Virus genome (UHGV): UHGV-0051534
From: a virus
Strand: one strand, 5' to 3'
Length of the DNA: 37,595 nucleotides
This document shows, one piece after another, positions 3,619-35,237 of the stretch (its first letter is position 1; the number at the start of each line of letters is the position of its first letter). A program made the translations under genes and the position numbers. Under the pieces are notes generated by a model. That model saw only the letters and a list, made by a program, of their open reading frames with translations, did not search any database and had not been told where the DNA came from.

Positions 3619-3708
3619 TTACCTCGGTCTGTTACCGTTGAGGTAATAATTATGCGTATATGGTTTGATGTCAATAGATATGAGTTAAAAAAATTACCCG
3701 TTAGGTAA
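3619..3708 (-). promoter_or_regulatory. leftward early promoter region with operator-like inverted repeats
   Basis: Consensus -35 TTGACA on the minus strand (forward tgtcaa 3669-3674); flanked by TTACC-GTTGA-GGTAA (3632-3646), a TTACC half-site (3619-3623) and TTACC-CGTTA-GGTAA (3694-3708). Confidence 0.5.
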
Positions 3709-3765: not shown

Positions 3766-4350
3766 TTATTTTTTGTTTTTTTCGTTCTGGTTGATGACAA
3801 ATTCAATGTAACTTTCGATCTTTGCTTTCTCGGTTTCGGGTAACAATGCGTAGCGCGAGCGATCATAGTTGATGGTCGCAGGGTCGTGCGGGTGAATCAG
3901 TAATTCATAGCCGTGACGCCCGAATGCGGATGCAACATTCTCCAGGGTGGAAATGGAAACGCTGACCTCATTGTTTAACAGGCGGCTGATTGTCACCTGG
4001 GCTACGCCGGATGCGCGGTGAAGTTTTCCCTGTGTTGAAAGGTCGCGGCTTTCGCTCATCCAGCGTTCCAGGTTGTGAGCCGCCAGCTGGCCAATGTCGC
4101 TTGGGCCGACAGGCTGAAAACCTTCCTGAGAAAGCGAGCGATCGATATCAAGCCAGTTACGGGGTTTATTGGCGGCAGCTTCAATTTTTCGTGCAACCTG
4201 GTCGCCGATAACCTTCTTGCCAAGAGCCCAGCGGTTTACCAGATTTGCCTGAGTTCCAAGTTTTTCAGCCATCCGCGTCTGAACACCATTGAATTCACGG
4301 TCGATCAAGTCGTTGAGATTTTGCCTGCGGACGTCCTGGATACTTTTCAT
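3766..4350 (-). CDS. immunity repressor (CI-like) with two HTH motifs and no S24 autocleavage domain
   Basis: 194 aa; HTH-like segments QTRMAEKLGTQANLVNRWALGKK and ASGVAQVTISRLLNNEVSVSISTLENVASAF; divergent from the Cro-like gene across an operator-rich gap; no peptidase-like C-terminal domain visible. Confidence 0.7.
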   Translation of the reverse strand: MKSIQDVRRQNLNDLIDREFNGVQTRMAEKLGTQANLVNRWALGKKVIGDQVARKIEAAANKPRNWLDIDRSLSQEGFQPVGPSDIGQLAAHNLERWMSESRDLSTQGKLHRASGVAQVTISRLLNNEVSVSISTLENVASAFGRHGYELLIHPHDPATINYDRSRYALLPETEKAKIESYIEFVINQNEKNKK

Positions 4351-4405
4351 TTTCTGGAAAATCGCCTCATATATGAATCAGTAGATGATTCAATTTAAAG
4401 CAATA

Positions 4406-4479
4406 TTACCCAACAGGTAAATGCACCCCACAGGTAACTATCCTTGATTTTTGTTACCTTATGGGTGAATATTTATTAT
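4406..4479. promoter_or_regulatory. tripartite operator region with candidate rightward promoter
   Basis: TTACC-CAACA-GGTAA (4406-4420), GCACC-CCACA-GGTAA (4423-4437), TTACC-TTATG-GGTGA (4454-4468); candidate promoter TTGTTA (4451-4456) -17 bp- TATTAT (4474-4479) overlaps the third site. Confidence 0.55.
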
Positions 4480-4504
4480 CTGAAATAAATATCAGGCAAT
4501 AGCT

Positions 4505-13346: not shown

Positions 13347-13375
13347 ATTATACCTTTAAGGTAATTTGTGGTCAT
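13347..13375 (-). promoter_or_regulatory. candidate promoter of the moron with overlapping operator-like site
   Basis: Minus-strand consensus -10 TATAAT (forward 13347-13352) with ATGACC 17 bp upstream; ATACC-TTTAA-GGTAA (13350-13364) overlaps it. Confidence 0.4.
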
Positions 13376-13567: not shown

Positions 13568-13644
13568 TGGCGCGGCATGCAGGATTCGAACCTGCGACCA
13601 ACCGCTTAGAAGGCGGTTGCTCTGTCCAACTGAGCTAATGCCAC
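13568..13644 (-). tRNA. tRNA-Arg (anticodon UCU)
   Basis: 77-nt cloverleaf folded by hand: acceptor GTGGCAT/ATGCCGC (one G-U pair), D-arm GCTC-AGTTGGACA-GAGC, anticodon arm ACCGC-CTTCTAA-GCGGT, T-arm GCAGG-TTCGAAT-CCTGC, discriminator G, encoded CCA. Confidence 0.85.
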
Positions 13645-27575: not shown

Positions 27576-30050
27576 ATGAGACAGGAATGTATACAAGCGG
27601 TCCAGCAGGCGGCGCAGCGCACGTTAACGGCGCGAGAAATACAGAACATTGAAGACCGCATTTATCGAAATATGCGCTCCATTGCTCGTGATGACCCGAT
27701 GTCGTGGCGACAACTTTCCGAATCAGAACGGTTGTATCGTGCAGCACAATTGGCATCTGAAGAATTACAGCGAGAAGCGGCATTAAAGAAACGTCGTGTG
27801 GCCCTCACTATAGCCGCACGTCAGAGATTGGATAAATTTATCAATAGCTATCAAGGGGCTGATGGGAAACTTGGCGCTCTTAACCGTACTATTGCTTTTA
27901 ATGCAGACGGTAAATCGAATTTCCTCTCTGTTGAATCCAGAACAAAAGCCACTCGTGATTATGCATTGAGTCAATTGCAGGAGGCATTTGAAGCAGTTGA
28001 TCCTCGCTTTTTTGGCCTGTTTGAAGATGAAGCGGGCGTGCGTGACCTGGTATATGAAATGCGAGGGCAAAATACTGGCAATGCTAAAGCAAGAAAAGGT
28101 GCTAAGGCGTGGAGAGAAGTGACAGATCTACTGCGCCGCCGGTTTAATGATGCTGGTGGGGACATTGGCTATCTCGAAAACTGGGGGATCCCTCAACATC
28201 ATTCTATGGAAAAGGTTGGGGCGGTATCAAAAGATAAATGGGTTAGCGATGTTATAGGTAAGCTGGATCGCAAATATTATACCCGAGCCGATGGACAACT
28301 GATGAACGATGCCGAGTTGTCTGCATTTCTTGGAGAGGCTTATAACACGATCGCTACTGGTGGGCTGAATAAGCTTACTGATACCGGAATGCGAATTTCC
28401 GGCGTACGTGCTAACCGTGGTAATGCATCACGACAGATACATTTCAAAGATGCAGATTCCTATCTGCAATATCAGCAACTTTATGGCGATCGCTCTCTAT
28501 GGGAAATCATGGTCGGTCACCTGGAAGGTATCAGTAAAGATATTGCGCTGGTGGAAACATATGGCCCAAACCCCGATCATGTTTTCCGCTCTCTTCTTGA
28601 TCAGGTTAAGGCAGAAACGGCAACAGCTAACCCGAGTAAAACCGGTAGCGTCGAGCGTCTGGCGAACAAAACAGAGAACTTGTACAACTTTATTTCCGGA
28701 AAAACACAGCCTGTAGCGAATCCGCACATCGCGCGATGGTCTGACAATATCCGCAACTGGCTGGTTGCCAGCAGACTCGGATCCGCGTTGCTGTCATCGT
28801 TCTCTGATCTTGGAACCATGTATCTGTCTGCGAAGGTTACCAACCTTCCAATGAACCAGCTATTTCGCAACCAGCTTGAAGCTATGGACCCAACGAACCG
28901 TACTGAGCTTGCGCGGGCGCGCCGCGCTGGCCTGGCGATGGAATCTCTACTTGGCAGCGTTAACCGCTGGGCGATGGATAATATGGGGCCGTCTGTGTCT
29001 CGTTGGGCGGCAACGGCGGTAATGCGTGCCAGTGGGCTTACAGCATGGTCAGATGCGCACAAGCGCGCCTATGGCGTAACCATGATGGGAAGCCTGGGAG
29101 AAGTAGTGTCACGGACACCAGACCTTCGTAGCCTCGATGACTCTGATTTTCGTATCCTGAAAAGTAAAGGGATTACTGACACAGACTGGAGCGTATGGAA
29201 GCTGGCGCAACAGGAGGACTGGGGGAACGGTAATAATACGATGCTGACACCGGAAAGCATTATGCGTATCCCTGATTCAGCAGTTAAACATCTTGGTGAG
29301 CCTGAACGCGTGAAATTTGAGGCAATGCGTAAACTGCTCGGTGCCGTAACTGAAGAAGTTGATATGGCTGTTATTACACCGGGAGCACGTGAGCAACTGA
29401 TAACCGGTTCTGGTATTCAGCGTGGAACATGGAAAGGTGAATTAACGAGAAGTGTTTTCCTGTTTAAATCGTTCCCTATCTCGGTTGTTATGCGTCACTG
29501 GTCACGCGCTATGGGTATGCCGTCTGCTGGTGGGCGTGCGGCATATATTGCGACGTTTATTGCCAGTACGACCATTCTTGGCGCTTTGTCGCAGCAACTT
29601 AACGACCTTGCGTCTGGTCGTAATCCTCGAGAGATGACAGGAGAAGATGCCGCAAAATTCTGGCTTGGTGCTCTACTGAAAGGTGGTGGTCTTGGCCTTT
29701 ACGGTGACTTTTTATTGTCAGATCACACTAGGTACGGAAGCGGCGCGCTGGCGTCGATGCTTGGCCCGGTAGCTGGTCTGGTTGATGACGTAGTGAAGAT
29801 TGCTCAGGGCATACCGTTAAATGCTGTGGAAGGGAAGAGTGAGCAGACTGGTGGTGATCTGGTGAAGCTGGGGAAAGGTTTGATGCCTGGTGCGAATCTC
29901 TGGTACTTGAAGGCGGCTCTCGATCACATGATCTTTAACCAGATGCAGGAGTATTTTTCACCAGGCTATTTGCGTAAAATGGAGCAACGTTCGAAGAAAG
30001 AGTTTAACCAGACATACTGGTGGCGACCTCAGGATGTCACTCCGCAATAA
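27576..30050 (+). CDS. large internal virion / ejection protein (gp16-like)
   Basis: 824 aa; last large gene of the ejection-protein block. Confidence 0.5.
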   Translation: MRQECIQAVQQAAQRTLTAREIQNIEDRIYRNMRSIARDDPMSWRQLSESERLYRAAQLASEELQREAALKKRRVALTIAARQRLDKFINSYQGADGKLGALNRTIAFNADGKSNFLSVESRTKATRDYALSQLQEAFEAVDPRFFGLFEDEAGVRDLVYEMRGQNTGNAKARKGAKAWREVTDLLRRRFNDAGGDIGYLENWGIPQHHSMEKVGAVSKDKWVSDVIGKLDRKYYTRADGQLMNDAELSAFLGEAYNTIATGGLNKLTDTGMRISGVRANRGNASRQIHFKDADSYLQYQQLYGDRSLWEIMVGHLEGISKDIALVETYGPNPDHVFRSLLDQVKAETATANPSKTGSVERLANKTENLYNFISGKTQPVANPHIARWSDNIRNWLVASRLGSALLSSFSDLGTMYLSAKVTNLPMNQLFRNQLEAMDPTNRTELARARRAGLAMESLLGSVNRWAMDNMGPSVSRWAATAVMRASGLTAWSDAHKRAYGVTMMGSLGEVVSRTPDLRSLDDSDFRILKSKGITDTDWSVWKLAQQEDWGNGNNTMLTPESIMRIPDSAVKHLGEPERVKFEAMRKLLGAVTEEVDMAVITPGAREQLITGSGIQRGTWKGELTRSVFLFKSFPISVVMRHWSRAMGMPSAGGRAAYIATFIASTTILGALSQQLNDLASGRNPREMTGEDAAKFWLGALLKGGGLGLYGDFLLSDHTRYGSGALASMLGPVAGLVDDVVKIAQGIPLNAVEGKSEQTGGDLVKLGKGLMPGANLWYLKAALDHMIFNQMQEYFSPGYLRKMEQRSKKEFNQTYWWRPQDVTPQ

Positions 30051-30245: not shown

Positions 30246-30542
30246 ATGCAAGCTATAGGATTCATTGTTTATATCGTCGTTGGTCTTTTTCAGTTGGCAG
30301 CAATTATGGCTGGGCTTGAATCATGGTGGGGATTGCACTGGATAATTGCAGCCCCCATTGCTTTCATCGTGAGCTATATTCCATTTGTTGGAGCGATTGT
30401 TGGTATGGTTGGCGCTGTGGATGTATGGCGGTGGGAGTGGTGGCAGGCTGGCCTTCTCTTCTTTGGTGGGATCATCTTTGCTATTGTCTGCGGTGGAATG
30501 TCATCATTTTTCGAATGGCTATCATTCAGAAAAAGAGCGTGA
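30246..30542 (+). CDS. small integral membrane protein (98 aa)
   Basis: AGGTGA RBS; three to four hydrophobic segments, Trp-rich; stop codon lies inside palindrome copy 2. Confidence 0.5.
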   Translation: MQAIGFIVYIVVGLFQLAAIMAGLESWWGLHWIIAAPIAFIVSYIPFVGAIVGMVGAVDVWRWEWWQAGLLFFGGIIFAIVCGGMSSFFEWLSFRKRA

Positions 30543-30550
30543 CATGTCAC
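30539..30550. repeat. perfect 12-bp palindrome GTGACATGTCAC, copy 2
   Basis: Identical to 10309-10320; overlaps an upstream TGA stop in the same register and is directly followed by a terminator. Confidence 0.8.
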
Positions 30551-30576
30551 AGGCCGCTTTCGCGGCCTTGTTTTTA
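30551..30576 (+). terminator. rho-independent terminator
   Basis: Hairpin AGGCCGC-TTTC-GCGGCCT followed by TGTTTTT. Confidence 0.6.
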
Positions 30577-30735
30577 ACGAATGCCACCGCCGCCCGGGCG
30601 GGAATCCGCAGAACGCCCACCGCAGCGGGAGCCGTCAGCAGCAGTATCGCTGTCGTGCTGACAGCGACCGGCAAAGGCCTGAGTTGAAGCTACCAGAGAC
30701 AACAAAACGAACAGTGCAGCAAATGCTTTTTTCAT
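30574..30735 (-). CDS. small secreted peptide (53 aa) with Sec-type signal peptide
   Basis: ATG 30735; MKKAFAALFVLLSLVASTQA-FAG has n-region, hydrophobic core and AxA-like cleavage site; mature part about 32 aa with two Cys; plausible promoter TTGACG -17- TATAGA upstream. Confidence 0.4.
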   Translation of the reverse strand: MKKAFAALFVLLSLVASTQAFAGRCQHDSDTAADGSRCGGRSADSRPGGGGIR

Positions 30736-30805
30736 TGTGAAATTTCCATCTATAAGCCACCTCAATGTGGCGTCAATGAGTGTAGCACTGACTTTTGTTT
30801 CGTCC

Positions 30806-30829
30806 ACAAAAAAGCCCGCGCTGCGGGCT
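30806..30829 (-). terminator. rho-independent terminator after moron 2
   Basis: Minus-strand hairpin AGCCCGC-AGC-GCGGGCT followed by TTTTTT. Confidence 0.6.
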
Positions 30830-31353
30830 TACCAAAACTTGTACCACGGGGATTTATCCTTCAATGGACAATCCTTCCATCGTGTGGCCAACCATTCATA
30901 TTCTTTAAAATATGTGTTTATGTTTTCTTTTTCTCTAATAGCTTGTATAAGAGGTAGCGCAATCTGATAGTTATTTACAACGGAGCTGTAAAATACTTCC
31001 TTAATCATGGTCTCATCATAAGTTTTCCGCTTCACGCTCACAGCCATGCGTTCGTAGAAACCTAGACAGTAAATTATTTCTCTCTTCTCTATCTTTTCTT
31101 CATCCGTAAGATCAGCCTGCCCATTGCTTGGATACATATAAGAGCGGAATGATTTGTTCGACTCGTGAATGCGGCGCATAGTAGATAGGCCTTTCTTATA
31201 ATCTACATCAAACCTGCTTTCACCAAGGAATACTGAAGTGTGTACTTTTCTCGCTGTATTTACATTATAAATAATAGTAGCGATAGCTATGAACAAGCCA
31301 AGCGAAACCGCGACTGCACTTACGATTTGAGCCACAGCCATGGCAAATTGCAT
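30829..31353 (-). CDS. moron 2: N-terminally membrane-anchored protein of unknown function
   Basis: 174 aa from ATG 31353 (GTG 31368 possible); N-terminal TM helix AMAVAQIVSAVAVSLGLFIAIATIIY then soluble domain; about 37% GC; opposite strand to structural genes. Confidence 0.5.
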   Translation of the reverse strand: MQFAMAVAQIVSAVAVSLGLFIAIATIIYNVNTARKVHTSVFLGESRFDVDYKKGLSTMRRIHESNKSFRSYMYPSNGQADLTDEEKIEKREIIYCLGFYERMAVSVKRKTYDETMIKEVFYSSVVNNYQIALPLIQAIREKENINTYFKEYEWLATRWKDCPLKDKSPWYKFW

Positions 31354-31385
31354 TTCTTCACTTAACACAAACTGTCTCCAGACAT

Positions 31386-31409
31386 GAAAACGGGGCCTGA
31401 TGGCCCCGT
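31386..31409 (-). terminator. candidate terminator/attenuator upstream of moron 2
   Basis: Minus-strand hairpin ACGGGGCC-ATCA-GGCCCCGT followed by TTTT. Confidence 0.4.
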
Positions 31410-31497
31410 CATTAAACTATCCGAATGTTAAACGCCTTCGTACTCGTCAAATTTTCTCATGTGGGCTCCTCCTGTATCGGTGCCTAATCGCTATGGA

Positions 31498-31512
31498 TCA
31501 CCCGTAAGGTAA
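31498..31512. promoter_or_regulatory. operator-like inverted repeat TCACC-CGTAA-GGTAA
   Basis: 5-5-5 motif between the antirepressor and moron 2. Confidence 0.35.
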
Positions 31513-31583
31513 TAGTACTCTATTCACCCCCCGGTCTGCAATCGTACAGGATTATTTAAAGGCACATCCCTGTGCCGCCGCCG

Positions 31584-32279
31584 TCAGAAGAACCCTGCCT
31601 TGTCGTTGATGTACTCCGCGTGCGTCTGGATATCACGCAGGCATTTGCTCACACCAACGATGTAACAGAACATGGTGGTCAGCTCCGCCGCCGCGCCCGA
31701 TACATCGTGCCCGTCTTCCTGCAACTGGTTTAGCAGATTCATCAGCAGTGAGTTCTCCGTCAGGCCGAGAACACCTGACGGCGAATGAATCAGACTGCGG
31801 TAGCCGGGCTTCAGTGGGGCGCTGTAGGTTTTGTTCTCTATCTTCATTGCTTGCATTACTGCTGACGCCGTGGCGTTGGCTACCTGGTCGGCAACCATCT
31901 TTATGCGTTCTTCCTGCGGGAGCGAGTTTTTAATGTAACTTCCGGTGCGGCGGATCTGAGGAAGAACCTCACCTGTAACCCATTTACGAAAGCGGTAGGG
32001 GATAGTGCCTGGTGTCACCGCATCGCGGCAGCGGAGGATCAGTGTGTAGAGGCCTGACTCGGAGATGATGATCGATTCTTGCTCACCGCCAGGGGTGTCG
32101 GTTGAAGCGACGCCCTTCTCATCATCATCAAGTTTTCGAACAGCATCTCGATGGTTTGCTATGCCTATAGCCCGACAAACATCTGAAGCGATAAACCATG
32201 GCTCACCATTAATGACGATTACTCGTATATCGGCTTGGGATTCGAAAGAAAAAATGGACGTGCTTTTTGTAGCTGTCAT
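31584..32279 (-). CDS. ant: antirepressor, Bro-N domain family
   Basis: 231 aa; N-terminal FSFESQADIRVIVINGEPWFIASDVCRAIGIANHRDAVRKL is a Bro-N/Ant-like motif; C-terminal domain is paralogous to the upstream small protein. Confidence 0.75.
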   Translation of the reverse strand: MTATKSTSIFSFESQADIRVIVINGEPWFIASDVCRAIGIANHRDAVRKLDDDEKGVASTDTPGGEQESIIISESGLYTLILRCRDAVTPGTIPYRFRKWVTGEVLPQIRRTGSYIKNSLPQEERIKMVADQVANATASAVMQAMKIENKTYSAPLKPGYRSLIHSPSGVLGLTENSLLMNLLNQLQEDGHDVSGAAAELTTMFCYIVGVSKCLRDIQTHAEYINDKAGFF

Positions 32280-32435
32280 AGTGGTTACCTTTTAGTCTGG
32301 TTAATCACCACTACCGACGCCAATCGGTTGGTGGTGAACTGTGCAGGGTTGGCGTAACCGGCTAAAAGGACCCGGCGCACCTTTCGGTGCCCCCACACAG
32401 CCCACCATAATACGAATGTGGCCGTGCTATACGCA

Positions 32436-32456
32436 TAAAAAAACCGCTTGCGCGGT
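32436..32456 (-). terminator. intrinsic terminator/attenuator in the antirepressor leader
   Basis: Minus-strand hairpin ACCGC-GCAA-GCGGT followed by TTTTTTT. Confidence 0.45.
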
Positions 32457-32548
32457 GAATGCGCCTTTTAGTAATCCGGGACGCCAATCCCGGCACTGGA
32501 TTTTGCCAGTGCCTGATTACTATGGCACAAGAGGAGTGCGATGTAAAT

Positions 32549-32563
32549 TTACCGCAAAGGTAA
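32549..32563. promoter_or_regulatory. operator-like inverted repeat TTACC-GCAAA-GGTAA
   Basis: Exact motif in the 316-bp leader upstream of the antirepressor. Confidence 0.4.
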
Positions 32564-32594
32564 ATATAAGCACTCCGCTTGGTAATTGCAAACC

Positions 32595-32852
32595 TTATCT
32601 GGTTTGCTTTCGTAATTGTTCGGCACAATAGTCGAGATGTGTTTGCAGATCCTGCATAGACATCTGTGAGCTGGTGACGTAGTTAATCAGTGCAGTCAGT
32701 TCGGCAAGTGGGCCATCGACATTAAATCCATCCTTATCGAGATCCCGGAGTAATTTCATCAAGTGCGATCCCTCCACCAGTGATCTGACGCCTCCCGGCG
32801 TGTGAATCCTTTCGGTAAATCCGTCTTCCAGTGGATAGTGATACTGCTGCAT
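32595..32852 (-). CDS. small protein paralogous to the antirepressor C-terminal domain; candidate SOS-induced antirepressor
   Basis: 85 aa from ATG 32852 with GGAG RBS; YPLEDGFTERIHTPGGVRSLVEGSHLMKLLRDLDKDGFNVDGPLAELT aligns by eye with Ant APLKPGYRSLIHSPSGVLGLTENSLLMNLLNQLQEDGHDVSGAAAELT; LexA box just upstream. Confidence 0.55.
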   Translation of the reverse strand: MQQYHYPLEDGFTERIHTPGGVRSLVEGSHLMKLLRDLDKDGFNVDGPLAELTALINYVTSSQMSMQDLQTHLDYCAEQLRKQTR

Positions 32853-32871
32853 CTTATCTTCTCCATGCAAT

Positions 32872-32891
32872 AACTGTATATTTATACAGTA
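32872..32891 (-). promoter_or_regulatory. LexA (SOS) box
   Basis: AACTGTATATTTATACAGTA matches the consensus TACTGTATATATATACAGTA (CTGT-N8-ACAG at 32874-32889); about 20 nt upstream of the small-protein ATG. Confidence 0.7.
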
Positions 32892-32928
32892 TCAAATAAT
32901 TTGTTTGCTATCCAGCACGTTTTGCAAA

Positions 32929-32943
32929 TTACCCGAAAGGTAA
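32929..32943. promoter_or_regulatory. operator-like inverted repeat TTACC-CGAAA-GGTAA
   Basis: Exact motif about 40 bp upstream of the LexA box and about 100 bp upstream of the tailspike start. Confidence 0.4.
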
Positions 32944-33047
32944 TATCTATTGGTATTTATAGTCTTTCTATCCATATGTGGTTTTTCAGGTAATAGAATA
33001 ACCAGATATGCGGCGCAACGGGTGCTGCGACTATCTGGAGATTTAAC

Positions 33048-35237
33048 ATGACGGTCTCAACCGAAGTTGACCACAACGAATACACTGGTAACGGAGCTAC
33101 GACATCATTTCCGTATACCTTCCGTATTTTCAAAAAAACCGACCTGGTTGTTCAGGTGTCTGACCTGAACGGGAACGTAACAGAATTGGTTCTGGATACC
33201 GGTTATAAGGTAACTGGAGCGGGCACTTATAGTGGCGGTGAAGTGGTTCTCCCGTCGCCGCTTGCTGCTGGCTGGCGAATTACGATAGAGCGTGTGCTTG
33301 ATGTGGTGCAGGAGACTGATCTTCGCAATCAGGGAAAATTTTTCCCCGAAGTTCATGAAGATGCATTTGACTACCTGACGATGCTGATCCAGCGATGTTT
33401 TGGGTGGTTCAGACGTGCATTGATGAAACCATCTTTGCTTGCAAAATATTACGATGCAAAGCAAAACAAAATTTCTAACCTTGCAGATCCATCATTTGAG
33501 CAGGACGCTGTAAATAATCGCTCAATGCGTAATTATGTCGATGCTGCAATCGCCGGGGTTGTTGGTGGTTTTGGTTGGTTTATACCGTCAGGAAGCGGGG
33601 CAAGACAACGAACATTTCAAAGCAAAATGAGGGATATAATTTCTCCTTGTGATTACGAAGATAATATTTTTATGATTAAGGAGTTGATATCCAAAGGCAA
33701 AAATGCCGCTGTTTTTAACTCATATTATACTTTTGTTATTACTGTTGGCGAATGGGGTGATTACCCTACACTCAAAGATGCAATCATTGCAGCCCAGTCA
33801 ATGAGACCTATGTGGGATGGTGGTAATGCTTTCTGCGAAATAAGAATTAAGACCGGGCATATTATCAACTATCAAATTGAATTCAGTTCAGGTGTTGATT
33901 TGTCTTGGATTAAAATAACATCAGAAGACTCAGTGGTTTTCTCTGACACTCGTTTGTTTACTAAAATCGTTAGAACGTATTACGAATACAAGTATTTATT
34001 TTACATTTGCGATGCAGCAAAAAGTCCTGTATTTGCTATTCAGATCGAAGAAAATAGAGATGATAGCGATGTTTGTGCATTTATTGTAACTCAAAAAGCT
34101 GAACTTAATTTCTATCCGTATTCAGGTGCTCGAAAGTTCTACGTTGGAATTCATGGTAGTTTTGGTGCAAAAATTAGTGCATATCATACCGGATGTGCTC
34201 CTGATGAGGAAAGTGTTGCTGCATATATGCCAGAAGGGTATTACGTATGTGATTTTTCTTATAGCAGATACTCTTCCCTGCAACTGGTAAATAATGTCAA
34301 GGCATCAATGCCTGTAAGCAAGTTTGAACGGTGCACAGAGAGTACGGTTGCGTCAGTTAATTGTATTTATAATGTTAAAGCAGATTTTCAGGGGTCAAGT
34401 GCAAGCTATTGTTATATAGGATGGAATGTAAGAGATGGTTCAAATGTTAATATACGCGACCATAAAACTATACATTGCTCATATCGTGGATTAACCTGCA
34501 TTCATACAGCATATGTTGATGCAAGACGACATGACGTTGAAGAAAGTGATGCAGAAACAAGTGGTAAAGTCCTTGAACCAAATATTGAAAAAGGTTTTTA
34601 TGGATGTGCACTTGGTGTGCGTATTGATGGTGCGGGTTGCGTTGATGTTGCTGGTAATGATATGCGCAATTGTGGAACAGCCGTTAATGCAGACACTGGT
34701 GCTGTTATTTCAGGAAAGGCTGTAGATATCTCAGGGGCTGAGCTGGGATTTGATTGCCATGCAGGAGCATCTGTTAATTTTCCAAGGCTATGGGGTACAG
34801 ATATAAAAAAATTAATGCACCTCCAAGATGGTGTAAGGTTTAACTCTAATATTTGTCATGTATTTGGTGCAAATCCCACAAAAGATATTAGATGGATTGA
34901 TGTAGAGAGATCTGAAGCTTCTTTTATGAATGCAACGCTGGATGCAGATTCAGGATTTATTGCCGACTGTGGTAGTAGGATAACCATTGAAGGAAGTAAA
35001 GTTAAAAACCAAACAATAAGAAGTTTTTTTGGATCATATGTGGCTATAAATAATACTGTTGCTGACAGAACTTATTCAGATATAGCCGATGTTCCGCAGT
35101 TGACTATTAGTGGAGGATCTTTTATTTCTGCTACAGGATATTCTAATTCTGACTCCAGCCCTCTGAGGTTGAGCACAACACGAAATACACTTGGCGTTGG
35201 AGGAGCCATATTTTCAACCAATGGGGAAGTTTCATGA
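33048..35237 (+). CDS. tailspike / tail fibre protein with low-GC receptor-binding part
   Basis: 729 aa; GGAG RBS; N-terminus MTVSTEVDHNEYTGNGATTSFPYTFRIFKKTDLVVQV typical of podovirus tailspike particle-binding domains; GC falls to about 38% after about 33600; C-terminal part Gly/Ser/Asn/Cys-rich as in beta-helix depolymerase domains. Confidence 0.75.
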   Translation: MTVSTEVDHNEYTGNGATTSFPYTFRIFKKTDLVVQVSDLNGNVTELVLDTGYKVTGAGTYSGGEVVLPSPLAAGWRITIERVLDVVQETDLRNQGKFFPEVHEDAFDYLTMLIQRCFGWFRRALMKPSLLAKYYDAKQNKISNLADPSFEQDAVNNRSMRNYVDAAIAGVVGGFGWFIPSGSGARQRTFQSKMRDIISPCDYEDNIFMIKELISKGKNAAVFNSYYTFVITVGEWGDYPTLKDAIIAAQSMRPMWDGGNAFCEIRIKTGHIINYQIEFSSGVDLSWIKITSEDSVVFSDTRLFTKIVRTYYEYKYLFYICDAAKSPVFAIQIEENRDDSDVCAFIVTQKAELNFYPYSGARKFYVGIHGSFGAKISAYHTGCAPDEESVAAYMPEGYYVCDFSYSRYSSLQLVNNVKASMPVSKFERCTESTVASVNCIYNVKADFQGSSASYCYIGWNVRDGSNVNIRDHKTIHCSYRGLTCIHTAYVDARRHDVEESDAETSGKVLEPNIEKGFYGCALGVRIDGAGCVDVAGNDMRNCGTAVNADTGAVISGKAVDISGAELGFDCHAGASVNFPRLWGTDIKKLMHLQDGVRFNSNICHVFGANPTKDIRWIDVERSEASFMNATLDADSGFIADCGSRITIEGSKVKNQTIRSFFGSYVAINNTVADRTYSDIADVPQLTISGGSFISATGYSNSDSSPLRLSTTRNTLGVGGAIFSTNGEVS

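Follow-up and report, generated by a model that had tools for sequence, protein, structure and literature searches.

Two paralogous antirepressor genes in tandem, with predicted LexA and antisense RNA control, in an epsilon15/phiV10-like Escherichia coli prophage

The antirepressor region

A DNA stretch of 37,595 nucleotides (nt) from the virus genome UHGV-0051534, termed here the window, carries a compact module in which two related antirepressor genes are separated by two genes for regulatory RNAs. All features of the module are on the minus strand. In the direction of transcription these are a LexA box, a small antirepressor gene (ant), a predicted promoter (PisrK), an isrK-type small RNA (sRNA) gene, a C4 antisense RNA gene, the C4 target sites and a second antirepressor gene (ant2), which encodes a Bro-N protein. 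On one side of the module is a virion structural gene (27576..30050, phrog_684) and on the other the tail fibre or tailspike gene (33048..35237). Across the module the window is 95-98% identical to the E. coli Uetakevirus phages ZX5, TL-2011b (a Shiga toxin 2, Stx2, phage), phiV10 and the O157 typing phages. The module probably serves secondary immunity, as the antirepressor region of an E. coli prophage of the epsilon15/phiV10-like type (Uetakevirus).

The small antirepressor, its LexA box and the repressor

The ant gene (32595..32852) is a small open reading frame (ORF) of 85 amino acids, with an ATG at 32852, a stop codon at 32595-32597 and a GGAG Shine-Dalgarno sequence at 32861-32864. The protein matches chain E of PDB entry 5D50, 'Anti-repressor protein', over residues 2-84 (E 4e-47). 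It is 88% identical (tblastn) to the product of the gene annotated ant in the GenBank record of phage SPC32H, a gene that occupies the matching location adjoining the tailspike gene. The immunity repressor gene, rep (3766..4350, minus strand), encodes 194 amino acids and is the presumed target of both antirepressors; its product matches chain A of the same entry, 'Repressor', over residues 1-190 (E 4e-42). The 5D50 chains are Ant and Rep of Salmonella phage SPC32H in their complex, and PDB 5D4Z belongs to the same system. Homology to SPC32H Ant is taken as settled, because the 5D50 sequence is matched at E 4e-47 by the small protein and at E 1e-13 by Ant2. By these similarities the 85-amino-acid protein is a homologue of the small antirepressor Ant of SPC32H and the repressor a homologue of SPC32H Rep, both being taken as orthologues, with Rep more diverged from its SPC32H homologue than Ant.

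A preliminary description, made from the DNA letters only, had regarded the repressor as lacking an autocleavage domain. This is borne out for the SPC32H Rep homologue, in which Pfam detects only helix-turn-helix domains and a Peptidase_S24 match is absent at E≤0.1. The small Ant itself has no model in Pfam or NCBIfam, and its RefSeq label in E. coli genomes is 'hypothetical protein'.

The LexA box (TACTGTATAAATATACAGTT, 32872..32891) was detected in a consensus scan and has 2 mismatches to the 20-nt consensus TACTGTATATATATACAGTA. It is the sole match at three or fewer mismatches in the window, and none was found in 100 shuffles. The core CTGT-N8-ACAG has 3 copies in the window where 0.47 would be expected; apart from that of the box, they have GC-rich spacers. 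As first described, the near-consensus box lies directly upstream of the small ORF, ending 19 nt before the ant ATG. It overlaps a candidate -10 hexamer, TATAAA (32881-32886), and a candidate -35, TAGCAA, is at 32905-32910; these hexamers were read by eye and fall below the threshold of the promoter scan.

In an alignment across five phages, the box of the window aligns column for column with that of SPC32H. Over the compared 5.2-kb locus only 2 bases distinguish SPC32N from SPC32H, and one of these is a C to A change in the ACAG half of the LexA box. A LexA-like box is located 24-36 nt upstream of the small gene in all eight species-representative enterobacterial genomes found, with the canonical CTGT-N8-ACAG core in five and ATGT-N8-ACAG in three. 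The box is also found in 77 of 80 close viral contigs; this set, in which the small Ant is at least 99% identical, is too close for covariation and served as the sample for the domain swapping described below.

For SPC32H, Kim and Ryu in 2013 and Kim and colleagues in 2016 are said to have found that Rep stays uncleaved in the SOS response and that Ant is under LexA repression. Reportedly, Ant is constitutive in SPC32N through a single-base change in the LexA site, and an Ant tetramer joins two Rep dimers, the Rep tetramer being taken off the DNA. This account agrees in part with the PDB names, the GenBank annotation, the difference between SPC32H and SPC32N, and two reviews. SPC32H Ant is produced once LexA has self-cleaved (review PMC7380047), and the Ant tetramer binds two Rep dimers and breaks the Rep tetramer (PMC9638917). 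By analogy with this tested system, host LexA is expected to bind the box of the window and synthesis of Ant to be SOS-dependent. The suggestion that the small protein is the SOS-released effector therefore agrees with published work on a homologous phage and describes something already known there.

The isrK and C4 RNAs

The spacer between ant and ant2, which are on the same strand and 315 nt apart, has been described as a leader with a terminator. The terminator is real: a scan places ACCGCGCAAGCGG, followed by T7, at 32437..32456. It belongs to an RNA gene and not to a plain leader. An isrK-type sRNA gene (32437..32512) matches Rfam family RF01394 at 77.9 bits against a gathering score of 50, and the model comprises two 5′ hairpins and the intrinsic terminator. 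The predicted sigma-70 promoter PisrK (32519..32547, TTTACA-17 nt-CATAGT) has 9 of 12 consensus matches and a TG before the -10, ends 6 nt before the isrK 5′ end and is kept in relatives. The arrangement is a tandem one: 82 nt downstream of the small-ant part, IsrK would be made from a separate promoter.

The C4 antisense RNA gene follows at 32327..32412 and is separated from ant2 by a 47-nt spacer. It matches RF01695 over its full length, i.e., the long closing stem and two inner hairpins, at 77.7 bits against a gathering score of 45. The minimum free energy (MFE) structure of the segment without isrK is the canonical C4 fold. A third family, RF03163 c4-a1b1 ('a1, b1 targets of C4'), overlaps isrK at 43.6 bits, which is under its gathering score of 46.7; it passes this score in phage PA28.

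Short complementary segments connect the two RNAs with the ant2 message. Within isrK are b1, UUGGCGU (32481-32487), and a1, CUAAAAGG (32464-32471). In C4, a′ (CCUUUUAG, 32362-32369) forms the loop of the second hairpin and b′ (ACGCCAA, 32349-32355) the single-stranded segment after it. The target sites on the ant2 mRNA, at 32288..32323, were located by complementarity and covariation and consist of b2, UUGGCGU (32317-32323), in a hairpin loop, and a2, CUAAAAGG (32288-32295). The 8-nt a′ and the 7-nt b′ are perfect complements of a1/b1 and of a2/b2 alike. Site a2 covers the AAGG Shine-Dalgarno sequence of ant2 and ends 8 nt before the AUG.

Covariation was assessed in 13 loci from 11 other phages and prophages. 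The phages are phiV10, Tyrion, Klebsiella ST11-OXA245phi3.2, Hafnia yong2, the Stx-type phages PA28 and 2851, APSE-2 and SfV, and the prophages are those of Citrobacter werkmanii, Superficieibacter, Scandinavium, Kluyvera and Klebsiella pneumoniae ATCC 13883. There is some redundancy, as the K. pneumoniae prophage repeats the RNA genes of the ST11 phage, and phiV10 and Kluyvera repeat the sites of the window. The a′ loop has at least 8 different sequences across the 13 loci, and a1 and a2 co-vary with it. Four variants of b′ are found with b1 and b2 matching each, save for one mismatch in SfV b2. When whole C4 core segments were paired with targets by RNAduplex, the cognate preference was weak and shared GC stems dominated. 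Complementary runs confined to the loops were used in place of these energies and gave a clean result, with 6-10 nt for cognate and 3-8 nt for non-cognate pairs. Some of these loci are in phages that have neither a LexA box nor the small gene upstream.

By family matches and covariation, then, the spacer consists of the isrK and C4 RNA genes, which have a predicted promoter to themselves, and the Bro-N gene is predicted to be under antisense control of the P1 immI type. It had been proposed that the Bro-N antirepressor is simply wired to the SOS response. This part of the earlier proposal is not sustained, because the C4 sequence complements the Shine-Dalgarno region of that protein's gene.

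Several reading frames overlap the RNA genes. A 35-amino-acid ORF inside C4 (32301..32408) was considered as an equivalent of icd or orf45 and rejected, as the Tyrion copy stops after about 15 codons by a by-eye reading. ORFs of 37 and 88 amino acids over the RNA genes have no Pfam or NCBIfam match. The ZX5 GenBank record contains a 37-amino-acid coding sequence (CDS), 'ash family protein', that corresponds base for base to window 32285..32398 (minus strand) and lies wholly within the C4 gene and the b2/a2 target sites. This CDS probably represents an RNA gene called as a protein. At least one GenBank record thus gives a protein annotation to the C4 RNA gene. CDS annotations are found over isrK-C4 pairs elsewhere as well: 'Ash family protein' in Hafnia yong2 and 'orf37 immunity region' in SfV.

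The second antirepressor

The ant2 gene (31584..32279) encodes 231 amino acids. The Bro-N assignment of the preliminary description is confirmed by PF02498 over residues 17-107 (76.7 bits, cut-off 25.6). This domain is followed by a linker and a C-terminal domain (about 148-229) that is paralogous to the small Ant. The by-eye estimate of roughly 40% identity between the small protein and this domain was close: in BLASTP the 85-amino-acid protein aligns ungapped with residues 150-223 of the 231-amino-acid protein, with 31/74 identities (42%) and an E value of 8e-16. Residues 150-226 also match 5D50 chain E, the SPC32H Ant (E 1e-13), and PHROG 450 (phrog_450) matches the small Ant and the Bro-N protein alike. 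Ant2 retains the motifs IHxPxGV, LMxLL, DGxxVxGxxAEL and QTHxxY of the small Ants. The Ant-like domains of the fusions form a group of their own, about 40% identical to the small Ants; the duplication is therefore old.

Ant2 is identical to ORF4 of phage ZX5 at 231 of 231 positions. When ZX5 ORF4 was overexpressed, lysogens fell from 10^9 to 10^6 and the repressor transcript by 75% (PMC9782041). The ZX5 paper tests the Bro-N protein as 'the' antirepressor, and the LexA box, the small Ant and the two RNAs are unmentioned in it (PMC9782041).

Among the 80 close contigs, C4 is present in 69 and absent from 11. In 66 of the 69, the gene after C4 encodes a protein with a nearly invariant C-terminal half, consisting of the linker and the Ant-like domain; contig ends truncate a few of these proteins. 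Their N-terminal domains can be sorted into five or more types, unrelated or diverged, among which are four Bro-N variants and an AntA-like domain. This combination of a constant C-terminal half with a swapped N-terminal domain supports the view that the shared domain is matched, as a module, to the resident repressor. That the shared domain binds the repressor had been suggested from the alignment, and by analogy it agrees with the SPC32H work. In the remaining three loci (IMG/VR contigs L002, L016 and L050), the gene after isrK-C4 encodes not the antirepressor but an unrelated 168-amino-acid protein (MPGQKISNDDLYWLISNS...), so the RNA cassette is able to drive cargo of other kinds.

AntA of Stx phage 2851 follows an isrK-C4 pair of its own and has a different N-terminal domain. 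Its residues 196-236 display a weak similarity to the SPC32H-type Ant domain (32-37% over 41 amino acids, E about 1e-5). The SPC32H-type Ant domain may be more widespread among phage antirepressors (cf. phrog_1760).

Operator-like palindromes

A palindrome, ATTACC-N5-GGTAAT, is repeated in the window, with 15 copies at two or fewer mismatches against 1.2 expected. Starts of the 17-nt sites are at 3631, 3693, 4405, 4790, 6736, 6798, 10398, 10416, 13349, 13966, 31497, 32548 and 32928. By position the copies are mostly intergenic, and rep is flanked on both sides (3631, 3693 and 4405). Three minus-strand copies are associated with the antirepressor module. A perfect copy (32928..32944) precedes the small ant promoter, in the gap that separates ant from the tailspike gene; TTTACC-N5-GGTAAA (32548..32564) abuts the -35 of the isrK promoter; and ATTACC-N5-GGTGAT, with one mismatch (31497..31513), is downstream of ant2 at the far edge of the cassette. 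SPC32H has three palindromes on each side of rep and one at the position equivalent to 32928-32944. In five phages the arms are conserved and the spacer is free, and in seven of the eight species genomes the palindrome is found at a fixed distance upstream of the LexA box. In this phage group the palindromes probably serve as the operators of Rep (and/or Cro).

The copy before isrK is at -52..-36 (-49..-33 in phiV10) in eight of nine composites of phages with an SPC32H-type Rep. No such palindrome was found at the isrK promoters of PA28, 2851, APSE-2, SfV and yong2, which have other repressors. As the palindrome is fixed at the isrK promoter only in Rep-type phages, this promoter appears to be wired to the resident repressor. 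A terminator scan detected none between the small ant stop codon and isrK; SOS-driven transcripts would therefore run into isrK, either stopping there with the a1/b1 decoys or reading on. These observations suggest that translation of Ant2 depends on the balance between IsrK and C4 and that the SOS response and loss of Rep both shift this balance.

In the K. pneumoniae ATCC 13883 prophage (L098, 2753..3690), an insertion of about 850 bp separates the small ant from isrK, and an extra operator-like palindrome is present at 2873.

Distribution

The small Ant occurs alone, without the RNA genes and ant2, in SPC32H, epsilon15, SPN1S and three of the eight species genomes. The composite is seen in E. 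coli, Enterobacter (Tyrion), Klebsiella, C. werkmanii, Superficieibacter, Scandinavium and Kluyvera. Of 5,426 complete E. coli genomes, 235 contain the module with at least 80% coverage, and it is also present in the Stx2-converting phage TL-2011b.

Proposed mechanism and alternatives

It is likely that the locus combines two known devices in tandem, a LexA-controlled small Ant (tier 1) and an RNA-gated Ant2 (tier 2), with coupling between them. In tier 1, by analogy with SPC32H, LexA would sit on the box over the ant promoter and DNA damage would remove it, such that Ant is made. Ant would then bind the non-cleavable Rep and free it from its operators, as the SPC32H Ant tetramer does. In tier 2, where the RNA anatomy is observed and the function is deduced from it, the separate promoter would give rise to IsrK sRNA that stops at its own terminator, and read-through would produce the C4 antisense RNA and the ant2 mRNA. 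The a′ and b′ segments of C4 would pair with a2 and b2, cover the Shine-Dalgarno sequence and block translation of Ant2 (cf. P1/P7 immI), and the decoys a1 and b1 of IsrK would pair with C4 and relieve the block (cf. Gifsy-1). The coupling is conjectural and may have two parts. Transcripts from the LexA promoter that reach isrK would let the SOS response supply RNA bearing a1/b1 as well, and by way of the Rep-operator-like site at the isrK promoter, loss of Rep would change transcription of isrK-C4-ant2. Ant2 might reinforce or extend the inactivation of Rep after induction has started, or act at infection before C4 accumulates.

A stronger form of this proposal can be put forward only tentatively, and it is rather doubtful. 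In it the tandem is a wired two-stage switch: removal of Rep by Ant, together with the decoy RNA and the change at PisrK, would tip the IsrK:C4 ratio and release translation of Ant2. The exchangeable N-terminal domain of Ant2 would, under the same tentative scheme, extend the response, e.g., to the repressors of co-resident prophages or to host targets. If true, the wired switch would constitute a protein-plus-RNA feed-forward commitment circuit for prophage induction.

Several points weigh against the tandem proposal. Both promoters, that of ant and that of isrK, are predictions from consensus matches and conservation. In the MFE structure of the full read-through RNA, a1/b1 are paired in cis with a′/b′ and a2 is open, and the simple picture in which C4 always blocks may be wrong for uncleaved transcripts. 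The upstream-ORF coupling of P1 (icd) and Gifsy-1 (orf45) is not conserved in the window. A palindrome centred near -44 could either repress or activate PisrK. In phiV10 the second antirepressor gene (3813..4492) is frameshifted in the Ant-like domain and annotated as p23 (194 amino acids) and a 29-amino-acid p22, and this phage is probably without a functional Ant2. Tier 2 is dispensable or accessory, being missing from SPC32H, epsilon15 and three of the eight species genomes, and C4 is missing from 11 of the 80 relatives. Lastly, the ZX5 ORF4 experiment was made with an overexpressed glutathione S-transferase (GST) fusion (PMC9782041).

The alternatives differ in how they treat the spacer and the second protein. 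The locus might be a single SOS operon without RNA regulators, in which transcription from the LexA promoter passes through the small gene, then a passive leader that contains an attenuating terminator, and finally the Bro-N gene. The two genes do share a strand at a distance of 315 nt, and with no terminator from the small gene to that of isrK, transcripts from the LexA promoter enter the spacer. Yet this spacer is matched by two curated RNA families, each at about 78 bits, and carries its own conserved promoter. It also co-varies with the downstream ribosome-binding site in 13 other loci, some of them in phages that lack both the LexA box and the small gene upstream. A passive leader is hardly credible on this evidence. 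It is also very improbable, if slightly less so, that Ant2 is a modulator of the small Ant that damps or sharpens induction by forming mixed oligomers through the shared domain. SPC32H Ant does act as a tetramer (PMC9638917) and Ant2 retains the motifs conserved in the small Ants, but overexpression of ZX5 ORF4 was pro-lytic (PMC9782041).

More attention is merited by the possibility that isrK-C4-ant2 is a self-contained anti-immunity unit, P1- or P22-like, that serves in infection or superinfection independently of the SOS-controlled small Ant. The variable N-terminal domain would, on this account, aim Ant2 at the repressors of co-resident prophages or at a host protein, and the Ant-like domain might only oligomerize. 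The cassette design is indeed found in Stx phages, APSE, SfV and the Hafnia phage, with neither LexA control nor a small Ant, and close relatives differ in whether they carry it. The swapped N-terminal domains and the unrelated 168-amino-acid cargo in three loci point the same way, as does the old duplication marked by the separate clade of Ant2 Ant-like domains at about 40% identity to the small Ants. Against this, the cargo retains the Ant-like domain wherever the cassette follows a small Ant (five species genomes and three phages examined), and the Rep-type operator is found on the isrK promoter in this lineage only. In addition, overexpressed Ant2 (ZX5 ORF4) cut lysogeny of its own phage and the repressor transcript (PMC9782041). 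An independent unit of this kind, with the roles just given to its two domains, is considered unlikely.

The tandem proposal has some bearing on how these prophages are understood. Recognition of the small protein as an SPC32H-type Ant would explain the DNA-damage response of prophages whose repressor is unable to self-cleave. The ZX5 study is the only experimental paper found on these E. coli phages, and its switch model is incomplete without the LexA box, the small Ant and the RNAs. The locus represents a compact natural case of a paralogous antirepressor pair with one member under a host transcription factor and the other under a phage antisense RNA and its decoy, and in such a locus the division of labour between two antirepressors is directly testable.

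Neighbouring features

The module had been placed between the ejection proteins and the tailspike. The placement holds, with about 1.3 kb of small accessory genes (30246..31368) separating the structural gene from the antirepressor module; these have no SPC32H counterpart. They encode a 98-amino-acid membrane-type protein (phrog_3075), a 77-amino-acid ORF (phrog_3117) and a 179-amino-acid DUF4760 protein. The 77-amino-acid ORF additionally matches phrog_14503, 'membrane associated protein', of the moron category. PADLOC gave no defence-system matches for Ant, Ant2 or the neighbouring small genes, those at 30246..31368 included. The accessory genes may be morons or exclusion genes.

Directly past ant2 (31387..31460, minus strand), a strong Shine-Dalgarno sequence precedes a 10-amino-acid ORF (MRKFDEYEGV), and a hairpin resembling a terminator comes after it (GACGGGGCC...GGCCCCGTTTT). 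Downstream of ant2 there is no isrJ-like or other Rfam match at E≤1. Elsewhere in the window, a tRNA gene (13571..13644, minus strand; Rfam tRNA, 69.4 bits) is flanked by operator-like palindromes at 13349 and 13966. The SPC32H annotation has a tRNA-Arg in the equivalent region, which has the terminase and portal genes on either side.

Comparison with known systems

The tandem composite, in which a small Ant under LexA control is joined by a paralogous fusion gated by RNA, with a Rep operator at the isrK promoter, seems to be undescribed, and a literature search found no paper on it. Each of its parts is ordinary. Tier 1 has its closest relative in the Rep-Ant-LexA system of SPC32H. The two share an Ant that is 88% identical, a homologous Rep without an S24 domain, a LexA box at the aligned position over the ant promoter, an ant gene divergent from the tailspike gene and the same family of operator palindromes. 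SPC32H differs in that only the small ant is present, followed by a terminator, without isrK, C4 or a second gene with an Ant domain. As all features that can be tested in silico are present, tier 1 is assigned to the SPC32H Ant/Rep/LexA system.

P22 immI, which comprises mnt, arc, ant and sar RNA, is the antirepressor region of a short-tailed temperate phage located between the internal or ejection genes and the tailspike gene. The module had been likened to it, and the likeness holds for position only. Here the module is opposite in orientation to the tailspike gene and control is by LexA and C4 instead. A P22-type immI was rejected, with neither Arc/Mnt nor sar detected: there is no other conserved ORF in 31380-33047, as judged from the ORF list with no profile search of small ORFs, and sar RNA has no match in Rfam scans at the gathering score or at E≤1. 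Tum of phage 186 and GfoA/GfhA of the Gifsy phages likewise are LexA-repressed small proteins that inactivate a non-cleavable repressor (Lemire et al. 2011, PMC3121763). No sequence similarity to them appeared in any search of this analysis, and the SPC32H-type Ant is, by sequence, a family distinct from both.

Tier 2 resembles two systems with antisense or trans-acting RNAs. The immI operon of P1 and P7, as Citron and Schuster reportedly described it in 1990, consists of c4 antisense RNA, icd and ant with the a1/b1 and a2/b2 target sites. The window shares with it the C4 Rfam family, decoys upstream of C4 and targets downstream over the ribosome-binding site of the antirepressor gene, as well as specificity that resides in short loop sequences differing between phages. 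It differs in having no conserved icd-like coupling ORF and in that the a1/b1 region is a terminated sRNA, IsrK. The antirepressor of the window is unrelated to P1 Ant and carries the SPC32H-Ant-like domain, and a LexA-controlled paralogue is found upstream. The anatomy of P1/P7 immI is summarized in the APSE paper (PMC7313666).

In the isrK-orf45-anrP-isrJ region of Salmonella Gifsy-1, a promoter directly upstream of isrK drives the antirepressor gene by terminator read-through, and IsrK turns on antirepressor translation in trans (Hershko-Shalev et al. 2016, PMC4825925). Common to Gifsy-1 and the window are an isrK with its own promoter and a leaky terminator, with read-through giving an antirepressor-like mRNA; in addition, a processed RNA downstream of isrK in Gifsy-1, STnc1160, is complementary to IsrK (PMC4825925), as is C4 in the window. 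Gifsy-1 differs in that activation proceeds through translation of orf45, an ORF that is not conserved in the window, and in that the output is the antiterminator AntQ (PMC4825925). It also has isrJ downstream, for which the window has no match, and a LexA-controlled upstream paralogue is not described for it (PMC4825925). Without the coupling ORF but with the RNA features of the class, tier 2 is assigned to the C4/isrK class represented by P1 immI and Gifsy-1.

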